Positions 14,519 to 21,341 of a DNA stretch of 64,000 nucleotides are shown here, piece by piece (the stretch's first letter is position 1; each line of letters starts with the position of its first letter). A program made the position numbers and the translations under genes. Origin of the DNA: a virus; the IMG/VR virus record IMGVR_UViG_3300029268_000006, positions 68,135 to 132,134 of that record. One strand, 5' to 3'. The notes beneath the pieces are model-generated. The model searched no databases, was not told where the DNA came from, and was given only the letters and a program-made list of their open reading frames with translations.

Positions 14519-15475
14519 ATGAAAGTTATAAATGATCTGTTCTGGGAGAAATATAGACCAAAATCTTTAAATCAAATGGTTCTTCTACCTAGAATTAGAG
14601 AAGAATTGAATGAAGGTTTTAAAAAGAATTATTTATTTCATGGACATGCTGGAACTGGTAAATCTACTATTGTTAGGATATTATTAAAAGATAAAGATTT
14701 TATCAGAATAAATGCATCTAAAAATGGTGGAATTGATACACTTAGGGATGAAATGGATGATTTTTGTACTGCGATGAGATCACCATTTACCAAATCTGAT
14801 GATAAGATGAAATATATTTATTTAGAAGAATTTGAAGGTTCGACAAAGGATTTTCAATATGCTTTTAAAGCATTTACCGAAGATTATGATAAACGGGTCA
14901 GATTTATTATCACCATGAATGATTTATCTGCTGTTAAAGTACCGGAACTTTTATCAAGATTTAATCCTTTGATCAAATTTGATCCGATAAATGATTCAGA
15001 AAGAGAATATCTTCAACAGGGATATTTCAAATATTTATCAGCAATATCCAAACATACCGAATTAAATCTAAAAGATGAAACTATAAAGAATTTGATAAAT
15101 ACTTATTTCCCGGATTTAAGATCAGCGGTCGAGGGTGTTCATCAAATTTTTATAACCGGAAAGGAAGATGTTGAAATACAAGAATCATATTCTGATATTT
15201 ATAAATTCATATTAAGTAATAGAACATCATTTGATGACATTTATAATTTTGTTGTTGATAATTATACGAATAGACCAAAGGAATTAATGGTTGTTCTGGG
15301 TAGACCTTTCTATAAATATTTAACTGATAATCATAAAAATATTATTGAAAAAAGTGGATTCAAATTAATGGGGATTTCAAAACAATATAATGCTGAATAT
15401 GAAACAACAATAGATCCAATTATACATTTGATTTCTTACATATCGGATTTGAAAAAAATAATAAATGAAGTATGA
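14519..15475 (+). CDS. sliding clamp loader AAA+ subunit (T4 gp44 / RFC-like)
   Basis: FWEKYRPKSL RFC box, Walker A GHAGTGKST, INAS...GIDTLR, atypical Walker B LEEFE. Confidence 0.85.
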   Translation: MKVINDLFWEKYRPKSLNQMVLLPRIREELNEGFKKNYLFHGHAGTGKSTIVRILLKDKDFIRINASKNGGIDTLRDEMDDFCTAMRSPFTKSDDKMKYIYLEEFEGSTKDFQYAFKAFTEDYDKRVRFIITMNDLSAVKVPELLSRFNPLIKFDPINDSEREYLQQGYFKYLSAISKHTELNLKDETIKNLINTYFPDLRSAVEGVHQIFITGKEDVEIQESYSDIYKFILSNRTSFDDIYNFVVDNYTNRPKELMVVLGRPFYKYLTDNHKNIIEKSGFKLMGISKQYNAEYETTIDPIIHLISYISDLKKIINEV

Positions 15476-15738
15476 TAACAAAAATTGAATATAAAAAAGC
15501 AATGGAGGTTGTTAAACAATATGAAAAGGAACAATCTGAAAAATGGAGATGTGAGAAATGTGAGAAGCAGTTTAGTAATCCGTTTGATGAATATTATTGT
15601 ACAGATGGATTTGATTTAAGAAATGATAAAGATTGTAAAGGTAAAAATTTTATGAATCATAATGATTTAATGCAAAACGGTGGACATTTGTATTCAGGTC
15701 ATTATTCATCACAAGGAGATCAGGGGAAAACGAATTAA
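15472..15738 (+). CDS. hypothetical Cys-containing protein
   Basis: 88-aa ORF with CEKC, overlapping both neighbours. Confidence 0.5.
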   Translation: MITKIEYKKAMEVVKQYEKEQSEKWRCEKCEKQFSNPFDEYYCTDGFDLRNDKDCKGKNFMNHNDLMQNGGHLYSGHYSSQGDQGKTN

Positions 15739-16724
15739 TGAAGATCATATATAAATCCCATTGGGAAAATATGAATGACGATGATTTGATCGTATTTAAA
15801 AAATTTATATTTGATTATTATAGAAACAAAGGGTTTCCATATTTTCCGATACCGGACATAGAAAAAGATATTATCAAAATAAAAAAATATCTTGATAACA
15901 ACACGATAATATCAGATAAGATAATAAAACAGACCATGCATGGTCTAAATATATGTTGGTATTATTTTCCCCATTCTTGGGAAGTGAAATGTAACAATAT
16001 GTTTTCTCCAATGGAAACTTTTTTAGATGATTCGAAATTAAAAAGAGTTATTGATAAACGAATAAAAAACGATACATACATTAGTGATGGTGGTATGAGA
16101 AAACAATTAAGAATATTTACCGGAACACAAAGTGTATCAAATTTCAGACCGACTTCGGCATATGGAATTTATGAATATTTTGGTGGTGGGGTAGTGTATG
16201 ATATGTCATCTGGATACGGTGGAAGATTACTTGGGTCTTTTTTAAGTGATAAAGTGAAAAAATATATTGGAGTCGATCCATGTAAAAAGACATATGAAGG
16301 GCTGATAAATTTGAAAAATGATTTGAATTATAAAAAATCAGAATTATATAATATTGGAAGTGAAGATTTCATACCAGATAAAAATAGTTTAGATTTGTGT
16401 TTCACATCACCACCTTATTTCGATACCGAAAAATATTCAGATGAAGATACACAAAGTTGGAAAAAATATCAAACAAAAAATTCATGGTTGAATGATTTTT
16501 TATTCACAACAGTTAAAAATTGTATTTATGGTCTAAAAACGGGTGGTTATTTGGCAATAAATATTTCTAATGTTAAATCATATACTGATTTAGAATTTGA
16601 TTTTATTTATATGATGAATAAATTTGATGAATTAAAATATATTGATAAATTGTTTTACACATTAAGTGCGATAAATAAAGGTGGTTTCAAATACGAACCA
16701 ATTTTCATTTTTCAAAAAATATAA
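15738..16724 (+). CDS. amino (N4-C/N6-A) DNA methyltransferase-like protein, orphan
   Basis: SAM motif YDMSSGYGGR, IGVDP, catalytic FTSPPY. Confidence 0.75.
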   Translation: MKIIYKSHWENMNDDDLIVFKKFIFDYYRNKGFPYFPIPDIEKDIIKIKKYLDNNTIISDKIIKQTMHGLNICWYYFPHSWEVKCNNMFSPMETFLDDSKLKRVIDKRIKNDTYISDGGMRKQLRIFTGTQSVSNFRPTSAYGIYEYFGGGVVYDMSSGYGGRLLGSFLSDKVKKYIGVDPCKKTYEGLINLKNDLNYKKSELYNIGSEDFIPDKNSLDLCFTSPPYFDTEKYSDEDTQSWKKYQTKNSWLNDFLFTTVKNCIYGLKTGGYLAINISNVKSYTDLEFDFIYMMNKFDELKYIDKLFYTLSAINKGGFKYEPIFIFQKI

Positions 16725-16727
16725 AAC

Positions 16728-16751
16728 AAACCCCGGAAAATCCGGGGTTTT
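16728..16751. terminator. bidirectional intrinsic terminator between convergent genes
   Basis: AAACCCCGGA-AAA-TCCGGGGTTT hairpin. Confidence 0.8.
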
Positions 16752-16799
16752 ACATTAGGTGTTTAATCTCAAAAAAAGGATCTTCTAGTAATTATATAA

Positions 16800-17789
16800 T
16801 TATTTCTTTTCGTTATCGATCTTATCTGAGAAATCATCAATATAATTAATATAATCGAGAAATTTTGGTTCTCTTTTTAACGAATTTTTCCGTTCATTTG
16901 GTAAATCGATTTCAATATGACAACGAAGAGTTGCTGGATTTGCATCTAATATAAAAATATCGGTTGAAAGAAATACAGCTTCTCGAATATCATGTGTGAC
17001 TAACAAAATAGTTGGGTCTAAACCATTATTATCTTGGAAGATTTTACGAAGAAATAATTGCATTGATCGTCTGGTTACGGTGTCTAATGCACCAAACGGT
17101 TCATCCATCAATAAAATATTCGGATTAGCCACCAAATTACGAGCTATGGCAACTCTTTGTAACTGACCCCCGGATAGTATAGGGTATTTTGCCCACTTCG
17201 ATTCATGACCACTTAAACCCACAATTTTAATCATCTCCATTGCTTTCTCACGAGCTTCCTTTTTTGGTGTTCCACTTAGGATTAACGGAAGTGCAACATT
17301 ATCCAAAACAGATTTCCAAGGGAATGAAGAATATTGTTGGAAAACCATCGGGATGTGATTATCGTCCTTGAGTTTTGTACCGTGAAGATAAACACTACCG
17401 GATGTTGGTTTTTGTAAACCACAAATATAACGTAATATTGTACTATTATGTGATAAAATACCATTAACAAAAAATCTTCTTTGAGATATTTCTGTTAATT
17501 CTATATCTATCATGTTATCTTCAACTTTTGTTTCAATTATAGATATAACTTTTTCTAAACCATTATTTGTTATAATTAAATTATCAATTTTTAAATCTTT
17601 AACAAATATTTCATTTATATTTTTATCAAACACTATATGTGTGTCTGCACATTTTAATTCGTGATTTTCGGTTTTCAATATCCATATTATATATGGAATT
17701 GTAATTGATATAGATTTAATATCAACAAAACCATCATCTGTTAATATTTCATATTCATCATTTTCTAAAATTTTAATATATTTTCTCAT
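16800..17789 (-). CDS. split-intein C-fragment (115 aa) fused to the C-extein of an ABC ATPase (TauB/SsuB-like)
   Basis: Likely start MRKYIK at 17789. Intein block B CADTHIVF; blocks F/G DIEL...FFVNGILSHN then S+1. Extein carries the Q-loop, signature LSGGQ, Walker B LLMDEP, D-loop GALD and H-loop VTHD. Confidence 0.9.
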   Translation of the reverse strand: MRKYIKILENDEYEILTDDGFVDIKSISITIPYIIWILKTENHELKCADTHIVFDKNINEIFVKDLKIDNLIITNNGLEKVISIIETKVEDNMIDIELTEISQRRFFVNGILSHNSTILRYICGLQKPTSGSVYLHGTKLKDDNHIPMVFQQYSSFPWKSVLDNVALPLILSGTPKKEAREKAMEMIKIVGLSGHESKWAKYPILSGGQLQRVAIARNLVANPNILLMDEPFGALDTVTRRSMQLFLRKIFQDNNGLDPTILLVTHDIREAVFLSTDIFILDANPATLRCHIEIDLPNERKNSLKREPKFLDYINYIDDFSDKIDNEKK

Positions 17790-17791
17790 TT

Positions 17792-18059
17792 TTATGTATT
17801 TAAAAATATTAAACAATCATTTATTGTTTTTTCTTTATTTTCTTTATAATCATATTCAAAACAAAATAACCATTTTTTTTAATTTCTTCATCTCTTATTA
17901 AATCTCTTTTTTTATTTTCAGAATTTTTTCTATGAATTCAATAATTTTATTTTTATTTTTTATAAAAAAAATCCGGTTTAATTATTTTATTTTCTAATTT
18001 TAATCTATATTCATTATTTTTACCACTATCGTCTAATCTTGTGAGATGCGTATTTAAAG
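17792..18059 (-). pseudogene. frameshifted remnant of a Vsr-like (PD-(D/E)xK) homing endonuclease
   Basis: Pieces across shifted frames: DDSGKNNEYRLKLENKIIKPDFF / IKNKNKIIEF / HRKNSENKKRDLIRDEEIKKNGYFVL / EYDYKENKEKTINDCLIFLNT*. Confidence 0.7.
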
Positions 18060-18240
18060 CTTCAAATCAATTGAAAAAGATGAAAGACCTTGATTTAATT
18101 GGTGATAATGGAGAAAATCCTAAATCAAATAATTACAGATATGTATATAATCCTGCTAATTAAACGCATGGTCAAACACATGGTCAAACTGTCCATGCTC
18201 GCATGGTCATTCGCATGGTAGTATTTAAAGTCTTTTTTGG

Positions 18241-18852
18241 TTAATTTGGATGTTGTAAACGTTTTATCATTTCTTCTGCTTTTATTTTTTCAATTTTTTG
18301 TGTTTTTTTATTTCTAATTGTAATAATAGAATCCATAGTAAAACACTTCCCACATCCAGATTTTCCTAAAATTGTAACAAATTGACCCCTACCTTTAATA
18401 TCTTTAACACTTAAATTCAAATTTTCAAATACGACATTTTTCCCCTTAACAAGTTTTGGTGCTGGTGGTTTTAAAAACATTGAATTTTTCTTATTCGTAA
18501 CATTTCCGGTACTATCAGTTTTACCCGGAACTGTTGGTAAGATAACATCATATTCTTGTTTTATATCAACAAGATCAATGATGTTTACTTTTTCGTAATG
18601 TTGATTCGGACTTTTGACTTCAATAATATTTGTATCTTCAAAGTCATTGATAAACATTTCTGGCTTTGGTTCTGGTTTATCTTCACTTTCAATTGTTTCT
18701 GGTTCTTCAACCACTTTAGGTTCTTCAACCTTTAATTCGACCTTTAATTCATCGAATTTATTTTCGATTTTTGATTCTTCGACATTTTCCGGTTGAACCT
18801 TTGATTCTTCAATAGGTTCGGGTTTTTTTCTATTACTAAAAATATTTCCCAT
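18241..18852 (-). CDS. ABC ATPase N-extein (acidic extension + start of Walker A) fused to a 34-aa split-intein N-fragment
   Basis: VFENLNLSV...FVTILGKSGCGK then CFTMDSIITIRNKKTQKIEKIKAEE (intein block A; Cys1 codon at 18345). Confidence 0.9.
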   Translation of the reverse strand: MGNIFSNRKKPEPIEESKVQPENVEESKIENKFDELKVELKVEEPKVVEEPETIESEDKPEPKPEMFINDFEDTNIIEVKSPNQHYEKVNIIDLVDIKQEYDVILPTVPGKTDSTGNVTNKKNSMFLKPPAPKLVKGKNVVFENLNLSVKDIKGRGQFVTILGKSGCGKCFTMDSIITIRNKKTQKIEKIKAEEMIKRLQHPN

Positions 18853-18854
18853 TG

Positions 18855-19658
18855 TTATACGTATTTGAATTTGAAACTACTTTTATCAATCCATTTGAAA
18901 AGTTTATCCGATAAATATCCGATAAAGATAATTTCCAATAAAATGGCGTACAACATATCGCTTCTAGACGCCTTTTGAATGGGGAAAGTCATACCACCCA
19001 AACCACCTTGATTATTAATCATTTCAGCAACTACAACATAAGTCCAAGAAATTGCCACAAGTACCCTGATATCATCTGAAACTCTTGATATTACCAATGG
19101 TAAATATAAATGTCTTATTTGTTGCCAACGACTAGCACCTAATGTTAGAATTGTTTGTTTGTATATTTTATCGATTTCATCAATACGTTGTACCACCACA
19201 GGAATTAAATATACAGCGATACCAAATGCTAGGAAATGAACCTTAACACCAAAATAAATACCAAATAAAGATATAAATATTCCGGTTGCTGCGGGTAATG
19301 GTAGGAATCGAACAGAATCAATTTGTTTACTTAATAATGATCTAAATATAGGGAATAGACCAATAAGAAAACCTAGTGGGATGGCGATTATAATTGCTTC
19401 TAAATATCCAAGAAAATTGATTGATAACGAATAACCAGTATTAGAAATTAAATTATATGTTGGATCTTTGATCATCTCACCATATGACATAAGAACGTTA
19501 ATTGGATTTGGTAGGATACGACTATTAATCCAACCCATCGTTGATGTCAACAACCAAAGAAATATAAGAAGAATCCAACCAATGATTTGTGTGATGGTGG
19601 CAGTTTTTTTATCTACCTGACCATCCATTTTAAACAATTCTTTTATTTGAGAATTCAT
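18855..19658 (-). CDS. ABC transporter permease (TauC/SsuC-like)
   Basis: Multiple TM helices, ILPNP, EAA-like TLGASRWQ...LP, SWTYVVVAEM..GGLG. Confidence 0.9.
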   Translation of the reverse strand: MNSQIKELFKMDGQVDKKTATITQIIGWILLIFLWLLTSTMGWINSRILPNPINVLMSYGEMIKDPTYNLISNTGYSLSINFLGYLEAIIIAIPLGFLIGLFPIFRSLLSKQIDSVRFLPLPAATGIFISLFGIYFGVKVHFLAFGIAVYLIPVVVQRIDEIDKIYKQTILTLGASRWQQIRHLYLPLVISRVSDDIRVLVAISWTYVVVAEMINNQGGLGGMTFPIQKASRSDMLYAILLEIIFIGYLSDKLFKWIDKSSFKFKYV

Positions 19659-19754: not shown

Positions 19755-21341
19755 TTATCTGTTGATGAGTTGAAATTCAGTACGGCGATTTTTTGATTTC
19801 ATTTCGTTTGTACTTTCAGTTTCACACCCAACAACTGGTTTGGATGATCCATTACCAATTACAGCCACAATATAGGATGAATTGATACCTCTTTTAATCA
19901 TATAATCAGCCACCGATTGTGCCCTCTTTTTGGACAAAATGACGTTTGATTTTGGATTACCAGTTTTATCGGTATTACCTTCCAAACGAAATTTAGAACC
20001 ACCAGCAACACCTTTGGCGATAGGAATAATTTCCCTATCTATTTTTTCCATTGCGTATTCATCTAAAGTGAAAGAATTAACAGCAAATTCAATGGATACT
20101 GGTTTAATTGCTGATGCTTCAGCCGTTTTGATATCTTCACTAACAGATGAAAAAACGATTTCACCTTCAGCTGAATGAATTCCACCACTCAAAGTAGTAA
20201 TACCCTGAATAAGACTAGGATCAGAAACCTGACGCCAAGGGAATGGATTTTTAGCCAAACCAACTTCAGTATAAACCCTTGTCATTTTAGTATAAAGTTC
20301 ATCACCGTCAACACCATTAAAGGATGAATTGAGTCCGAAGAAGTTTACATTATCACCATATGTTGAATACCTCACTTTATACATACCATCAGCGACAACA
20401 AATTTTGGTGCGTTGAAAGCCTTCGAAAAAGTAGATGCGATACTATCATATATTGGTGGAATACTATTTGGTTTACCATCAGACATTTTACTGATTTCAT
20501 CGGTAAATATAGTAGGATCGATTTTTTTACAAAGTTCGTTAGTTTCTGCGTTGATTGTCAACCAAGCAACTGCTATTTTTTCAAAATATTTCTTTTTCTT
20601 TTCAAAAACATCTTTACGAACTATAATACCATCCATAATAATGTTACGAGCGAATTTAGTTGAAAAAATTTCATGTGAACCGGCAATGGCTGTGTAACAA
20701 TCACCATCATCTGGGGACCAAACTACAGCAACGGGAACTTCACCACTTTTGAACATTTTAGCGGATTCAATACCGTCGCCAACTTTTACCAATTCAACAT
20801 CATTTTGTGTAAGACCGGCGGTTTCAAGTACCCTTAAAAGAAGTGTATGTGATGCTGTTCCAACAGCCACTGCTATTTTCTTACCTTTTAAATCAGATAC
20901 ACTTTTAATAGTACGAACACCAACAATAACATCGGCACCACGACTATCATCAATTTTAAGAATTTGTACAACACCTAATTTCATCAAGTCTGACATTTCT
21001 CCATTTTCGATTGGTGAAATATCGGTGGTAGTATAAATAAAATCTACCTTACCTTCTTTCAAAGCGTCAATACAATTTGAACGAACATCCATTTGTTCAA
21101 TCTTCAATTTAAGACCAAACTCCTTTGTAAGACGTGATTCTTTATTCACATCTTTTCCATGATTGAGATATACAATCGGAGCAAATCCACTCCAAGTGTT
21201 AAGAGATCCTGTCAAATCGGCGGATGAATCACCTGTCAATGACTTACTGATTGTCGGCCAAAAATAAATAGATGCCGGGATTACGATGATGAGGGCGATT
21301 ACCGTCCAAGTTAACCATCCAATTTGTCTTAAAAAATTCAT
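19755..21341 (-). CDS. NMT1/THI5-like substrate-binding protein fused to a C-terminal OmpA-like peptidoglycan-binding domain
   Basis: N-terminal TM anchor; DDSRGADVIV...LKGKKIAVAVGTASH; OmpA-C motifs IEFAVNS, EGNTD..G...N..LS.KRA..V, NRRTEF. Confidence 0.85.
   Translation of the reverse strand: MNFLRQIGWLTWTVIALIIVIPASIYFWPTISKSLTGDSSADLTGSLNTWSGFAPIVYLNHGKDVNKESRLTKEFGLKLKIEQMDVRSNCIDALKEGKVDFIYTTTDISPIENGEMSDLMKLGVVQILKIDDSRGADVIVGVRTIKSVSDLKGKKIAVAVGTASHTLLLRVLETAGLTQNDVELVKVGDGIESAKMFKSGEVPVAVVWSPDDGDCYTAIAGSHEIFSTKFARNIIMDGIIVRKDVFEKKKKYFEKIAVAWLTINAETNELCKKIDPTIFTDEISKMSDGKPNSIPPIYDSIASTFSKAFNAPKFVVADGMYKVRYSTYGDNVNFFGLNSSFNGVDGDELYTKMTRVYTEVGLAKNPFPWRQVSDPSLIQGITTLSGGIHSAEGEIVFSSVSEDIKTAEASAIKPVSIEFAVNSFTLDEYAMEKIDREIIPIAKGVAGGSKFRLEGNTDKTGNPKSNVILSKKRAQSVADYMIKRGINSSYIVAVIGNGSSKPVVGCETESTNEMKSKNRRTEFQLINR

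Follow-up and report, generated by a model that had tools for sequence, protein, structure and literature searches.

We analysed a 64 000-nucleotide stretch of DNA, here called the window, which corresponds to positions 68135-132134 of the IMG/VR virus record IMGVR_UViG_3300029268_000006 (132 kb). It contains the gene of an ABC importer ATPase which is divided into two open reading frames (ORFs) inside its Walker A motif. We consider it probable, at roughly 80%, that this break is a genuine class-1 intein, atypically split close to its N-terminus, in the ATPase of a huge lake-water phage, and that the two halves would be joined by protein trans-splicing. The N-terminal ORF ends with a 34-residue intein fragment (IntN), the C-terminal ORF begins with a fragment of 115 residues (IntC), and a spacer lies between them (coordinates in Table 1).

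Intein fragments and host protein

The host sequence is broken exactly between Lys and Ser of Walker A, and removal of IntN, spacer and IntC precisely restores GKSGCGK-STILRY, a fit that chance would not produce. The joined exteins (169 + 214 residues) give a TauB/SsuB/NrtD-like ATPase of 383 residues. An initial annotation, made from the letters of the sequence, had described an ORF at 18241-18852 which ends with GKSGCGK followed by Cys and a 34-residue IntN, a 115-residue IntC with block B and a terminal SHN preceding Ser, and a rebuilt GKSGCGK-ST in an ATPase of about 383 residues. Coordinates, sequence and reconstruction were as described, with IntC at 17445-17789. The C-half ORF runs to 16800. 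Its start as called by the program is a TTG codon at 17816; homology with the N-termini of other IntC sequences favours the ATG at 17789 (MRKYIK...).

The nucleophiles and the C-terminal pair of a class-1 intein are present (Cys1, Ser+1 and His114-Asn115). In IntC, block B reads KCADTH (with His51), block F NMIDIE (with Asp95) and block G NGILSHN (with His114-Asn115). Both His51 and Asp95 are invariant in an alignment of 15 IntC sequences, where the family forms are CADxH for block B and NMYDxxL for block F. The IntN sequences of five loci fit the pattern C-x3-[ND]-[ST]-x-I-x-[IV]-[RK]-N-K-K-T-x2-I-...-I-x-[ED]-[FLM], which spans block A, the hairpin and the first helix. The window's IntN aligns without gaps with the copies from locus L015 and from the DnaB gene described below, and with a one-residue gap with two TerL copies. 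Judged by length, the split position matches the S2 site, after helix alpha-1; the fragments have the sizes of S2-type inteins (IntN about 25-37 and IntC about 104-115 residues, on two ORFs).

The host assignment rests on both exteins and on the adjoining genes. Pfam ABC_tran matches the N-extein with its model positions 10-42 (E 0.012) and the C-extein with 2.9e-19, and the C-extein contains the Q-loop, the LSGGQ signature, Walker B and the H-loop. The best NCBIfam models for the ATPase are TauB (9e-47), NrtCD and SsuB, every one of them scoring under its curated cut-off. All ABC motifs of a TauB/SsuB/NrtD-type importer ATPase are thus found, together with adjoining permease and binding-protein genes, both intact. 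The ABC_tran match and the importer operon bear out the initial annotation, which had named an ABC transporter ATPase as the host. The ATPase also carries an N-terminal extension of about 130 residues (18460-18852, minus strand), of low complexity and rich in Glu, Lys and Pro. It does not occur in bacterial TauB/SsuB; a diverged version is present in the orthologues of L006 and LR756501.1.

Intein-free and contiguous alleles

Intein-free alleles of the gene exist in related phages. At the junction, the 383-residue product shows no gap in its alignments with the contiguous proteins of the IMG/VR contig L006 (390 residues, GKSGCGKSTILRY) and of the phage record LR756501.1 (385 residues, GQSGCGKSTILRY). 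The C-extein of L006 is 89% identical to that of the window. Further intein-free copies were found in L008-L011 and L013. The orthologues read G(K/Q)SGCGKSTILRY... across the break point and share the operon context.

An empty site was also found in one of the sequencing runs that contain the intein-bearing gene. In run X1, which may represent the source sample, a 90-nt contig connects 17429 directly with 18350 and encodes ...GKSGCGKSTILRYICGL; it has a depth of 4.1, versus 12.3 for the intein-bearing unitig of the same run. At the joint, 19 letters did not align to the flanks of the window at the threshold used. These encode K-STILR by other codons (for example TCA versus AGT for Ser+1), and the neighbouring 41 nt differ from the window at only two positions. 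The uninterrupted contig indicates that an empty-site strain coexists with the intein-bearing one.

Locus L007 (3699-5690, plus strand) contains an orthologous ATPase with a contiguous LAGLIDADG intein of about 390 residues at the same GK-S point. Its junctions read GASGCGK-CVAKG...VVHN-STILRY. As the point of insertion is identical, two unrelated intein types use this site. The search for intein-free or contiguous alleles which the initial annotation had proposed thus yielded both.

Relatives of the IntC domain

A full HMMER scan with the 115-residue IntC of 1.84 billion cluster representatives gave 716 relatives at E<=1e-3, 405 of them at E<=1e-10. In nearly all of the 150 matches listed, the domain closes with [TS]NGILSHN; then come Ser or Thr and the part of a P-loop NTPase that lies past Walker A. 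In most of them the domain begins at most a dozen residues from the N-terminus, as in the split form; in some it is internal. The listed matches, the window and the copies from the other loci were combined into a set of 154 IntC sequences. Their hosts are TerL (101 sequences), DnaB-like (21), ClpX-like (5), ABC (5, the window and L015 included), RFC-like (4) and ClpB-like proteins (4), and others (14).

A profile built from the alignment of 15 IntC sequences (A1) matched solved inteins: VidaL (6vgv, 1e-12), gp41-1 (6qaz, 7e-9), the IntC of Cat-TerL (CatC, 6dsl_B, 1.8e-7 over the full length), NrdJ-1 (2.5e-5) and Spl DnaX (5e-4). Pfam Intein_splicing matches 14 of the 15 members, at best with 3.9e-7. 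Neither of the two ORFs themselves matched an intein domain of Pfam at E<0.1. The check by intein profiles suggested in the initial annotation therefore succeeded at the level of the family and failed for the single ORFs. The short-IntN, atypically split intein with a Cys1/Ser+1 pair proposed there is supported by the profile matches to solved inteins and by the intein-free alleles.

ABC hosts, judged from such homology, recur in metagenomes (P0013, P0122, P0151, L015 and L007). In L015, which comes from another metagenome, a diverged ABC orthologue (60% identity in the C-extein) has the same split arrangement, with an IntN of 34 residues (CLSINTLITIRNKKTKIIEKISINDFLKRLPHPK and stop, the end reading ..KRLPHPK) and with IntC and Ser+1 after the spacer. 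The spacer, of 141 bp, consists almost wholly of the same endonuclease remnant as that described below for the window. Fusions of IntC with ABC sequence also occur in three metagenomic cluster representatives (P0013, P0122, P0151); a search of viral contigs for loci related to P0122 gave no match.

The tree of the 154 IntC domains (116 columns) is poorly resolved, and we therefore name no donor of the ABC-hosted intein, the DnaB copy of the same genome included. Host labels are strongly intermixed on it, with 43 changes for seven host classes. The ABC-hosted copies require four changes on the best tree; the supported branches permit a single origin. It is safe to say that the family has repeatedly moved between unrelated P-loop genes.

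Two further members of the family were noted. In L030 (218-1602), a TerL is split by an intein of the same family with no endonuclease and with halves that overlap by 4 nt; a second intein begins close to the end of that contig. In L036 (692-2452), the family is represented by a contiguous mini-intein whose insertion point in the P-loop lies one step earlier (PRQ-C...SHN-SGKT).

The spacer and the state of the gene

The spacer contains no ORF longer than 40 residues, and its gene strand is free of terminator-like sites. A remnant at the 3' end of the spacer shows 58% identity to the extreme C-terminus of the intact endonuclease in the DnaB locus of the same genome and 57% to that of an intact counterpart in the TerL locus (E 1e-4 and 8e-5, respectively, in a small search). 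It stops 5 nt before the IntC ATG, where the intact gene sits in the helicase locus. The segment at 17931-17975 is only suggestive of a second, weaker remnant. By this homology the spacer is what remains of a free-standing Vsr-like homing endonuclease gene; as that gene has decayed, the element at the ABC locus is probably not self-mobile now. The decayed endonuclease, the DnaB and TerL paralogues and the recurrence of ABC hosts had all been missed in the initial annotation.

The 9-mer repeated near the IntN stop (GACCATGCG) has no other occurrence in the 132-kb record. ORFs of 40 residues on the opposite strand overlap this repeat cluster (18165-18217). The repeat-bearing 5' part of the spacer gave no sign of a regulatory hairpin like those of Dassa et al. 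(2009), its RNA fold being not significant (z -1.3).

With a clearly decayed endonuclease gene between its halves, the ATPase gene might itself be dead: the intein would have become inactive after invasion, the ORFs would be decaying, and the transporter would be non-functional or would borrow an ATPase of the host. The intein-free allele in the same sample and the weak constraint on IntN point in this direction, and it is from their sequence that we infer splicing of the halves. We consider a dead gene unlikely, however. Both ORFs are intact, every catalytic intein residue is kept, and so are all ABC motifs; the dN/dS versus L006 is 0.06 for the C-extein and 0.056 for the core of the N-extein (last 70 codons). 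The permease and binding-protein genes are intact too. Furthermore, L015, at 60% extein identity, keeps intact halves, although its endonuclease has decayed even further. In both ABC lineages the endonuclease has rotted but intein and exteins have been preserved, an argument for selection on the intein and extein parts; versus L015, dN/dS is 0.34 for IntC and 0.24 for the C-extein.

Several observations nevertheless weigh against a functional intein in the window. Taken singly, the window's IntC matches Pfam Intein_splicing with an E-value of 0.97 and CatC with one of 0.063, and it takes the family profile to make a convincing case. The Thr of the block B TxxH motif is Ala here and throughout the family (CADxH); as it is family-wide, the exchange is probably tolerated, but it is a departure from the canonical form. 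The dN/dS of IntN versus L015, computed on 34 codons, is 0.64, a sign of weak constraint. Since dS in the comparison with L006 has reached saturation (above 1), the low dN/dS of the exteins mostly reflects the time before insertion. Finally, as the endonuclease is dead, selfish persistence is not separable from a benefit to the host.

Predicted association of the fragments

We predicted the complex of IntC (alignment A1) and IntN with six extein residues (A2). The model reached an ipSAE of 0.91, compared with 0.01 for the best of three controls; 58 of 80 solved complexes and two of 110 mismatched pairs attain that mark. The runs share at least 91% of the contacts, with a partner pLDDT of at least 84. 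In the predicted complex, IntN and IntC reconstitute one Hint domain, and Cys1 and the residues next to it are in contact with block B (45-52), block F (91-96) and the terminal SHN (113-115). Like complexes have been solved (the two-chain Cat-TerL structure 6dsl and VidaL, 6vgv), and the high score may therefore come from memorised structures. What the model demonstrates is likeness to split inteins; it is no independent proof of binding.

Tight docking of this kind, predicted by likeness to solved split inteins, would also be expected if the fragments merely dimerised two ATPase pieces without splicing. A precedent among endonuclease-fractured phage genes is a fragmented phage ribonucleotide reductase, which is reported to be held together non-covalently by interaction domains derived from mobile elements (PMC3045599). 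For the ABC ATPase we regard such an assembly as very improbable, because a folded Hint domain of 149 residues would stay inside the nucleotide-binding loop. Moreover, Cys1, the block B His, the block F Asp, the His-Asn pair and Ser+1, which are needed only for the chemistry, are all conserved.

Continuity of the assembly

The stretch was found in sequencing runs from lake-water metagenomes and one marine metagenome. In run X1, a 991-nt unitig covers 17400-18390 with zero differences. Three perfect unitigs of run X3, from another study, bridge C-extein/IntC, IntC/spacer and spacer/IntN/N-extein. Runs X4 and X5 cover only parts of the stretch, and their gaps carry no weight as evidence; in X4 (marine, 2024), the covered part includes the spacer and the end of IntN and has a 6-nt deletion. 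A misassembly, which the initial annotation had named as a possible refutation, is excluded for practical purposes by the unitigs of X1, X3 and X4, those of X1 and X3 bridging all junctions without differences. That an intein-spacer block was misjoined into an uninterrupted ABC gene is hardly credible: although the 90-nt X1 contig joins the flanks directly and the paralogous inteins of the genome might confuse an assembler, the 991-nt unitig is covered three times as deeply as the empty allele, X3 bridges each junction independently, with X4 covering spacer and IntN end, the paralogues (34-52% identical in protein) are too different to be misjoined, L015 has the same arrangement in another study, and the 19 non-aligning letters of the empty contig still encode K-STILR and thus belong to a different strain and not to the same molecule.

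Other fractured genes and genomic context

Three more fractured genes lie in the same record outside the window (Table 1). The DnaB-like helicase has an IntN of 32 residues and an IntC of 120 residues, the latter 50-52% identical to that of the ABC gene. One intact Vsr-like endonuclease gene (301 residues) lies between its halves; the C-terminal domain of the product matches Vsr with an E-value of 0.03, including an ILIVWEC motif. TerL has an IntN of 54 and an IntC of 147 residues (39-41% identical to that of the ABC gene), with a terminal Leu-Asn and Thr+1. Two endonuclease-like ORFs are found between its halves, one of which matches DUF7487. The fourth fractured gene, probably that of an NrdJ-type ribonucleotide reductase, contains a canonical split intein with a long IntN (with TPDH) and a short IntC ending ILVHN-CGE, and an endonuclease ORF of 255 residues between the halves. 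The intein of the ABC gene belongs to a large P-loop-targeting family which travels with a free-standing Vsr-like endonuclease gene ('fractured gene').

The ATPase halves are the last genes of a three-gene importer operon, which is also present in L003, L006-L011 and L013 (huge-phage contigs). The hairpin 3' of the C-half is the sole terminator-like site on the gene strand within 16600-19000, which makes co-transcription of the halves likely. A scan for sigma-70 promoters gave fewer sites than in shuffled sequences and was uninformative. The plus-strand neighbours are a DNA methyltransferase (N6_N4_Mtase, marginal score, 15738-16724) and an RFC/clamp-loader-like AAA+ protein (14519-15475). The latter is uninterrupted; RFC-like proteins elsewhere host the same intein family (P0006, P0017).

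CheckV estimated the completeness of the 132-kb record as 19%, which implies a very large phage. Among phage records, extended similarity to the stretch was found only in LR756501.1 and LR756503.1, both designated 'uncultured phage' and 735,411 bp in length.

Table 1. Features of the fractured ATPase locus (positions in the window) and fractured genes elsewhere in the same record.
Feature	Position	Strand	Description
N-half ORF	18241-18852	minus	203 aa; ends ...FVTILGKSGCGK, then CFTMDS...LQHPN and stop
N-extein, 169 aa	18346..18852	minus	opening strands of the ABC nucleotide-binding domain, then Walker A through GKSGCGK
IntN, 34 aa (CFTMDSIITIRNKKTQKIEKIKAEEMIKRLQHPN)	18244..18345	minus	Cys1 and block A; stop codon 18241-18243
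Spacer between halves	17790..18240	minus	454 bp, 22% GC
Short repeats of (G)ACCATGCG	18165..18217	minus	just past the IntN stop; near-copies and two exact copies of the 9-mer GACCATGCG
Putative frame-shifted endonuclease remnant (..NKNKIIEFI..)	17931..17975	minus	versus KKIIEFN motif, 75% over 12 aa, E 0.11
C-terminal remnant of Vsr-like homing endonuclease	17795..17878	minus	84 nt encoding KKWLFCFEYDYKENKEKTINDCLIFLNT and stop; tblastn, alignment A3
IntC, 115 aa	17445..17789	minus	ends FFVNGILSHN, then STILRY
C-extein, 214 aa and stop	16800..17444	minus	Ser+1 completing Walker A (GK-ST); reads STILRYICGLQKPTSG...
Intrinsic-terminator-like hairpin	16728..16750	minus	3' of the C-half
ABC permease (TauC/SsuC/SaoP-like)	18855..19658	minus	directly upstream of the ATPase N-half, same operon
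Substrate-binding protein (SsuA/NMT1-like) fused to C-terminal OmpA/Pal-like peptidoglycan-binding domain	19755..21341	minus	first operon gene
Fractured DnaB-like helicase, GETGVGK-C	record G000:C1 61516-64371; locus L004 2517-3611, 3630-4535, 4659-5372	minus	outside the window
Fractured TerL, SRQSGK-C	record G000:C1 36956-42089; locus L005 1457-3883, 3876-5021, 5030-6007, 6057-6590	minus	outside the window
Fourth fractured gene, probably NrdJ-type ribonucleotide reductase	record G000:C1 53565-57333	plus	outside the window

Discussion

We propose that the operon gives one message, from which the N-half and the C-half would be translated separately. The short IntN would dock on a partly folded IntC and complete the Hint fold. 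A thioester would form at Cys1, followed by transfer to Ser+1; Asn115 would then cyclise, and a native peptide bond would join the exteins. The spliced 383-residue ATPase with its restored GKSGCGK-ST would bind ATP and power the permease. In the unspliced state the ATPase should be dead, since an intein domain of 149 residues would occupy the P-loop. Import activity would then depend on trans-splicing, as the catalytic residues, the low dN/dS of the exteins and the docking model suggest; expression of the halves and their docking in vivo would be part of the same process.

An element of this kind has already been published. The fragment sizes (34 and 115 residues here) are nearly equal to those reported for GOS-TerL (37/115), AceL-TerL (25/104) and Cat-TerL (30/104) (Thiel, 2014, and Bachmann & Mootz, 2015, as summarised in PMC11766414), and the N-proximal split at S2, after helix alpha-1, is the natural split of AceL-TerL and GOS-TerL (PMC13014065). 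All three are likewise class-1 inteins from phage-like metagenomic DNA, and AceL-TerL and Cat-TerL also have Cys1. It differs from the TerL inteins in its host, an ABC importer ATPase, in having Ser+1 instead of Cys and CADTH instead of CSDNH, and in its low sequence identity to them. VidaL (6VGV), the top-scoring solved relative of the IntC family, is likewise naturally and atypically split and cysteine-dependent. However, VidaL is split at S1 and has an IntN of 16 residues (PMC13014065), whereas helix alpha-1 is kept in the 34-residue IntN described here.

The arrangement of the locus resembles the fractured phage genes with a free-standing Vsr-like endonuclease between the halves described by Dassa et al. 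(2009; PMC2677866). As in those genes, a split intein marks the break, and the halves have changed neither their order nor their orientation nor their locus. In the same genome, the DnaB and TerL loci, with Vsr-like endonucleases between the halves, fit this description. The ABC locus, by contrast, lacks an intact endonuclease and contains remnants only; it corresponds to step III of the published model, the loss of the endonuclease, which was seen there once, at the gp41-7 locus (PMC2677866).

The unusual part is the host class, a transporter ATPase. To our knowledge, intein hosts are known almost solely among replication, repair, nucleotide-metabolism and packaging enzymes. The hosts of Dassa et al. 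(2009) are DNA synthesis and repair enzymes and the terminase, and 'ABC' is absent from the text (PMC2677866). Inteins in the P-loops of ATPases such as DnaB, MCM and RFC have been surveyed (Novikova et al., 2016; PMC4760082); neither 'ABC' nor 'transporter' is found in the main text of that survey. A full-text search of the open-access literature found no intein in an ABC transporter ATPase, which is no proof of novelty.

The position of the insertion allows for a regulatory function, which we put forward as a rather unlikely idea by analogy. Insertion after the Lys of the Walker A sequence SGCGK creates C-G-K-C, a CXXC motif, and this motif is found at the insertion point in the window, in L015 and in L007. 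In the MoaA intein of Pyrococcus abyssi, a disulphide between an N-extein Cys and Cys1 acts as a 'redox trap' which blocks splicing (Callahan, 2011, as cited in PMC10663303). Were Cys(-3)-Gly-Lys-Cys1 to act likewise, splicing would be conditional and would gate the importer: maturation of the ATPase would require a reducing cytoplasm, and the intein would be a post-translational switch on an auxiliary metabolic function of the phage and more than the scar of a parasite.

The intein adds to the short-IntN split inteins with a Cys1/Ser+1 pair, and a screen of its family, which has hundreds of members, might yield ligation tools. The presence of a P-loop-targeting family in a membrane-transport ATPase and the occurrence of split and contiguous inteins at one point of Walker A in orthologous phage genes suggest that the target is the GK-S/T sequence and not the cellular function of the host protein. 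This bears on the debate whether the distribution of inteins follows from function or from conservation of the site. A single genome has intact endonucleases at the DnaB, TerL and NrdJ loci beside a decayed one at the ABC locus, for which an empty allele occurs in the same water sample. As these stages of the life cycle stand side by side, the phage is a good natural system for work on the homing and decay of inteins.

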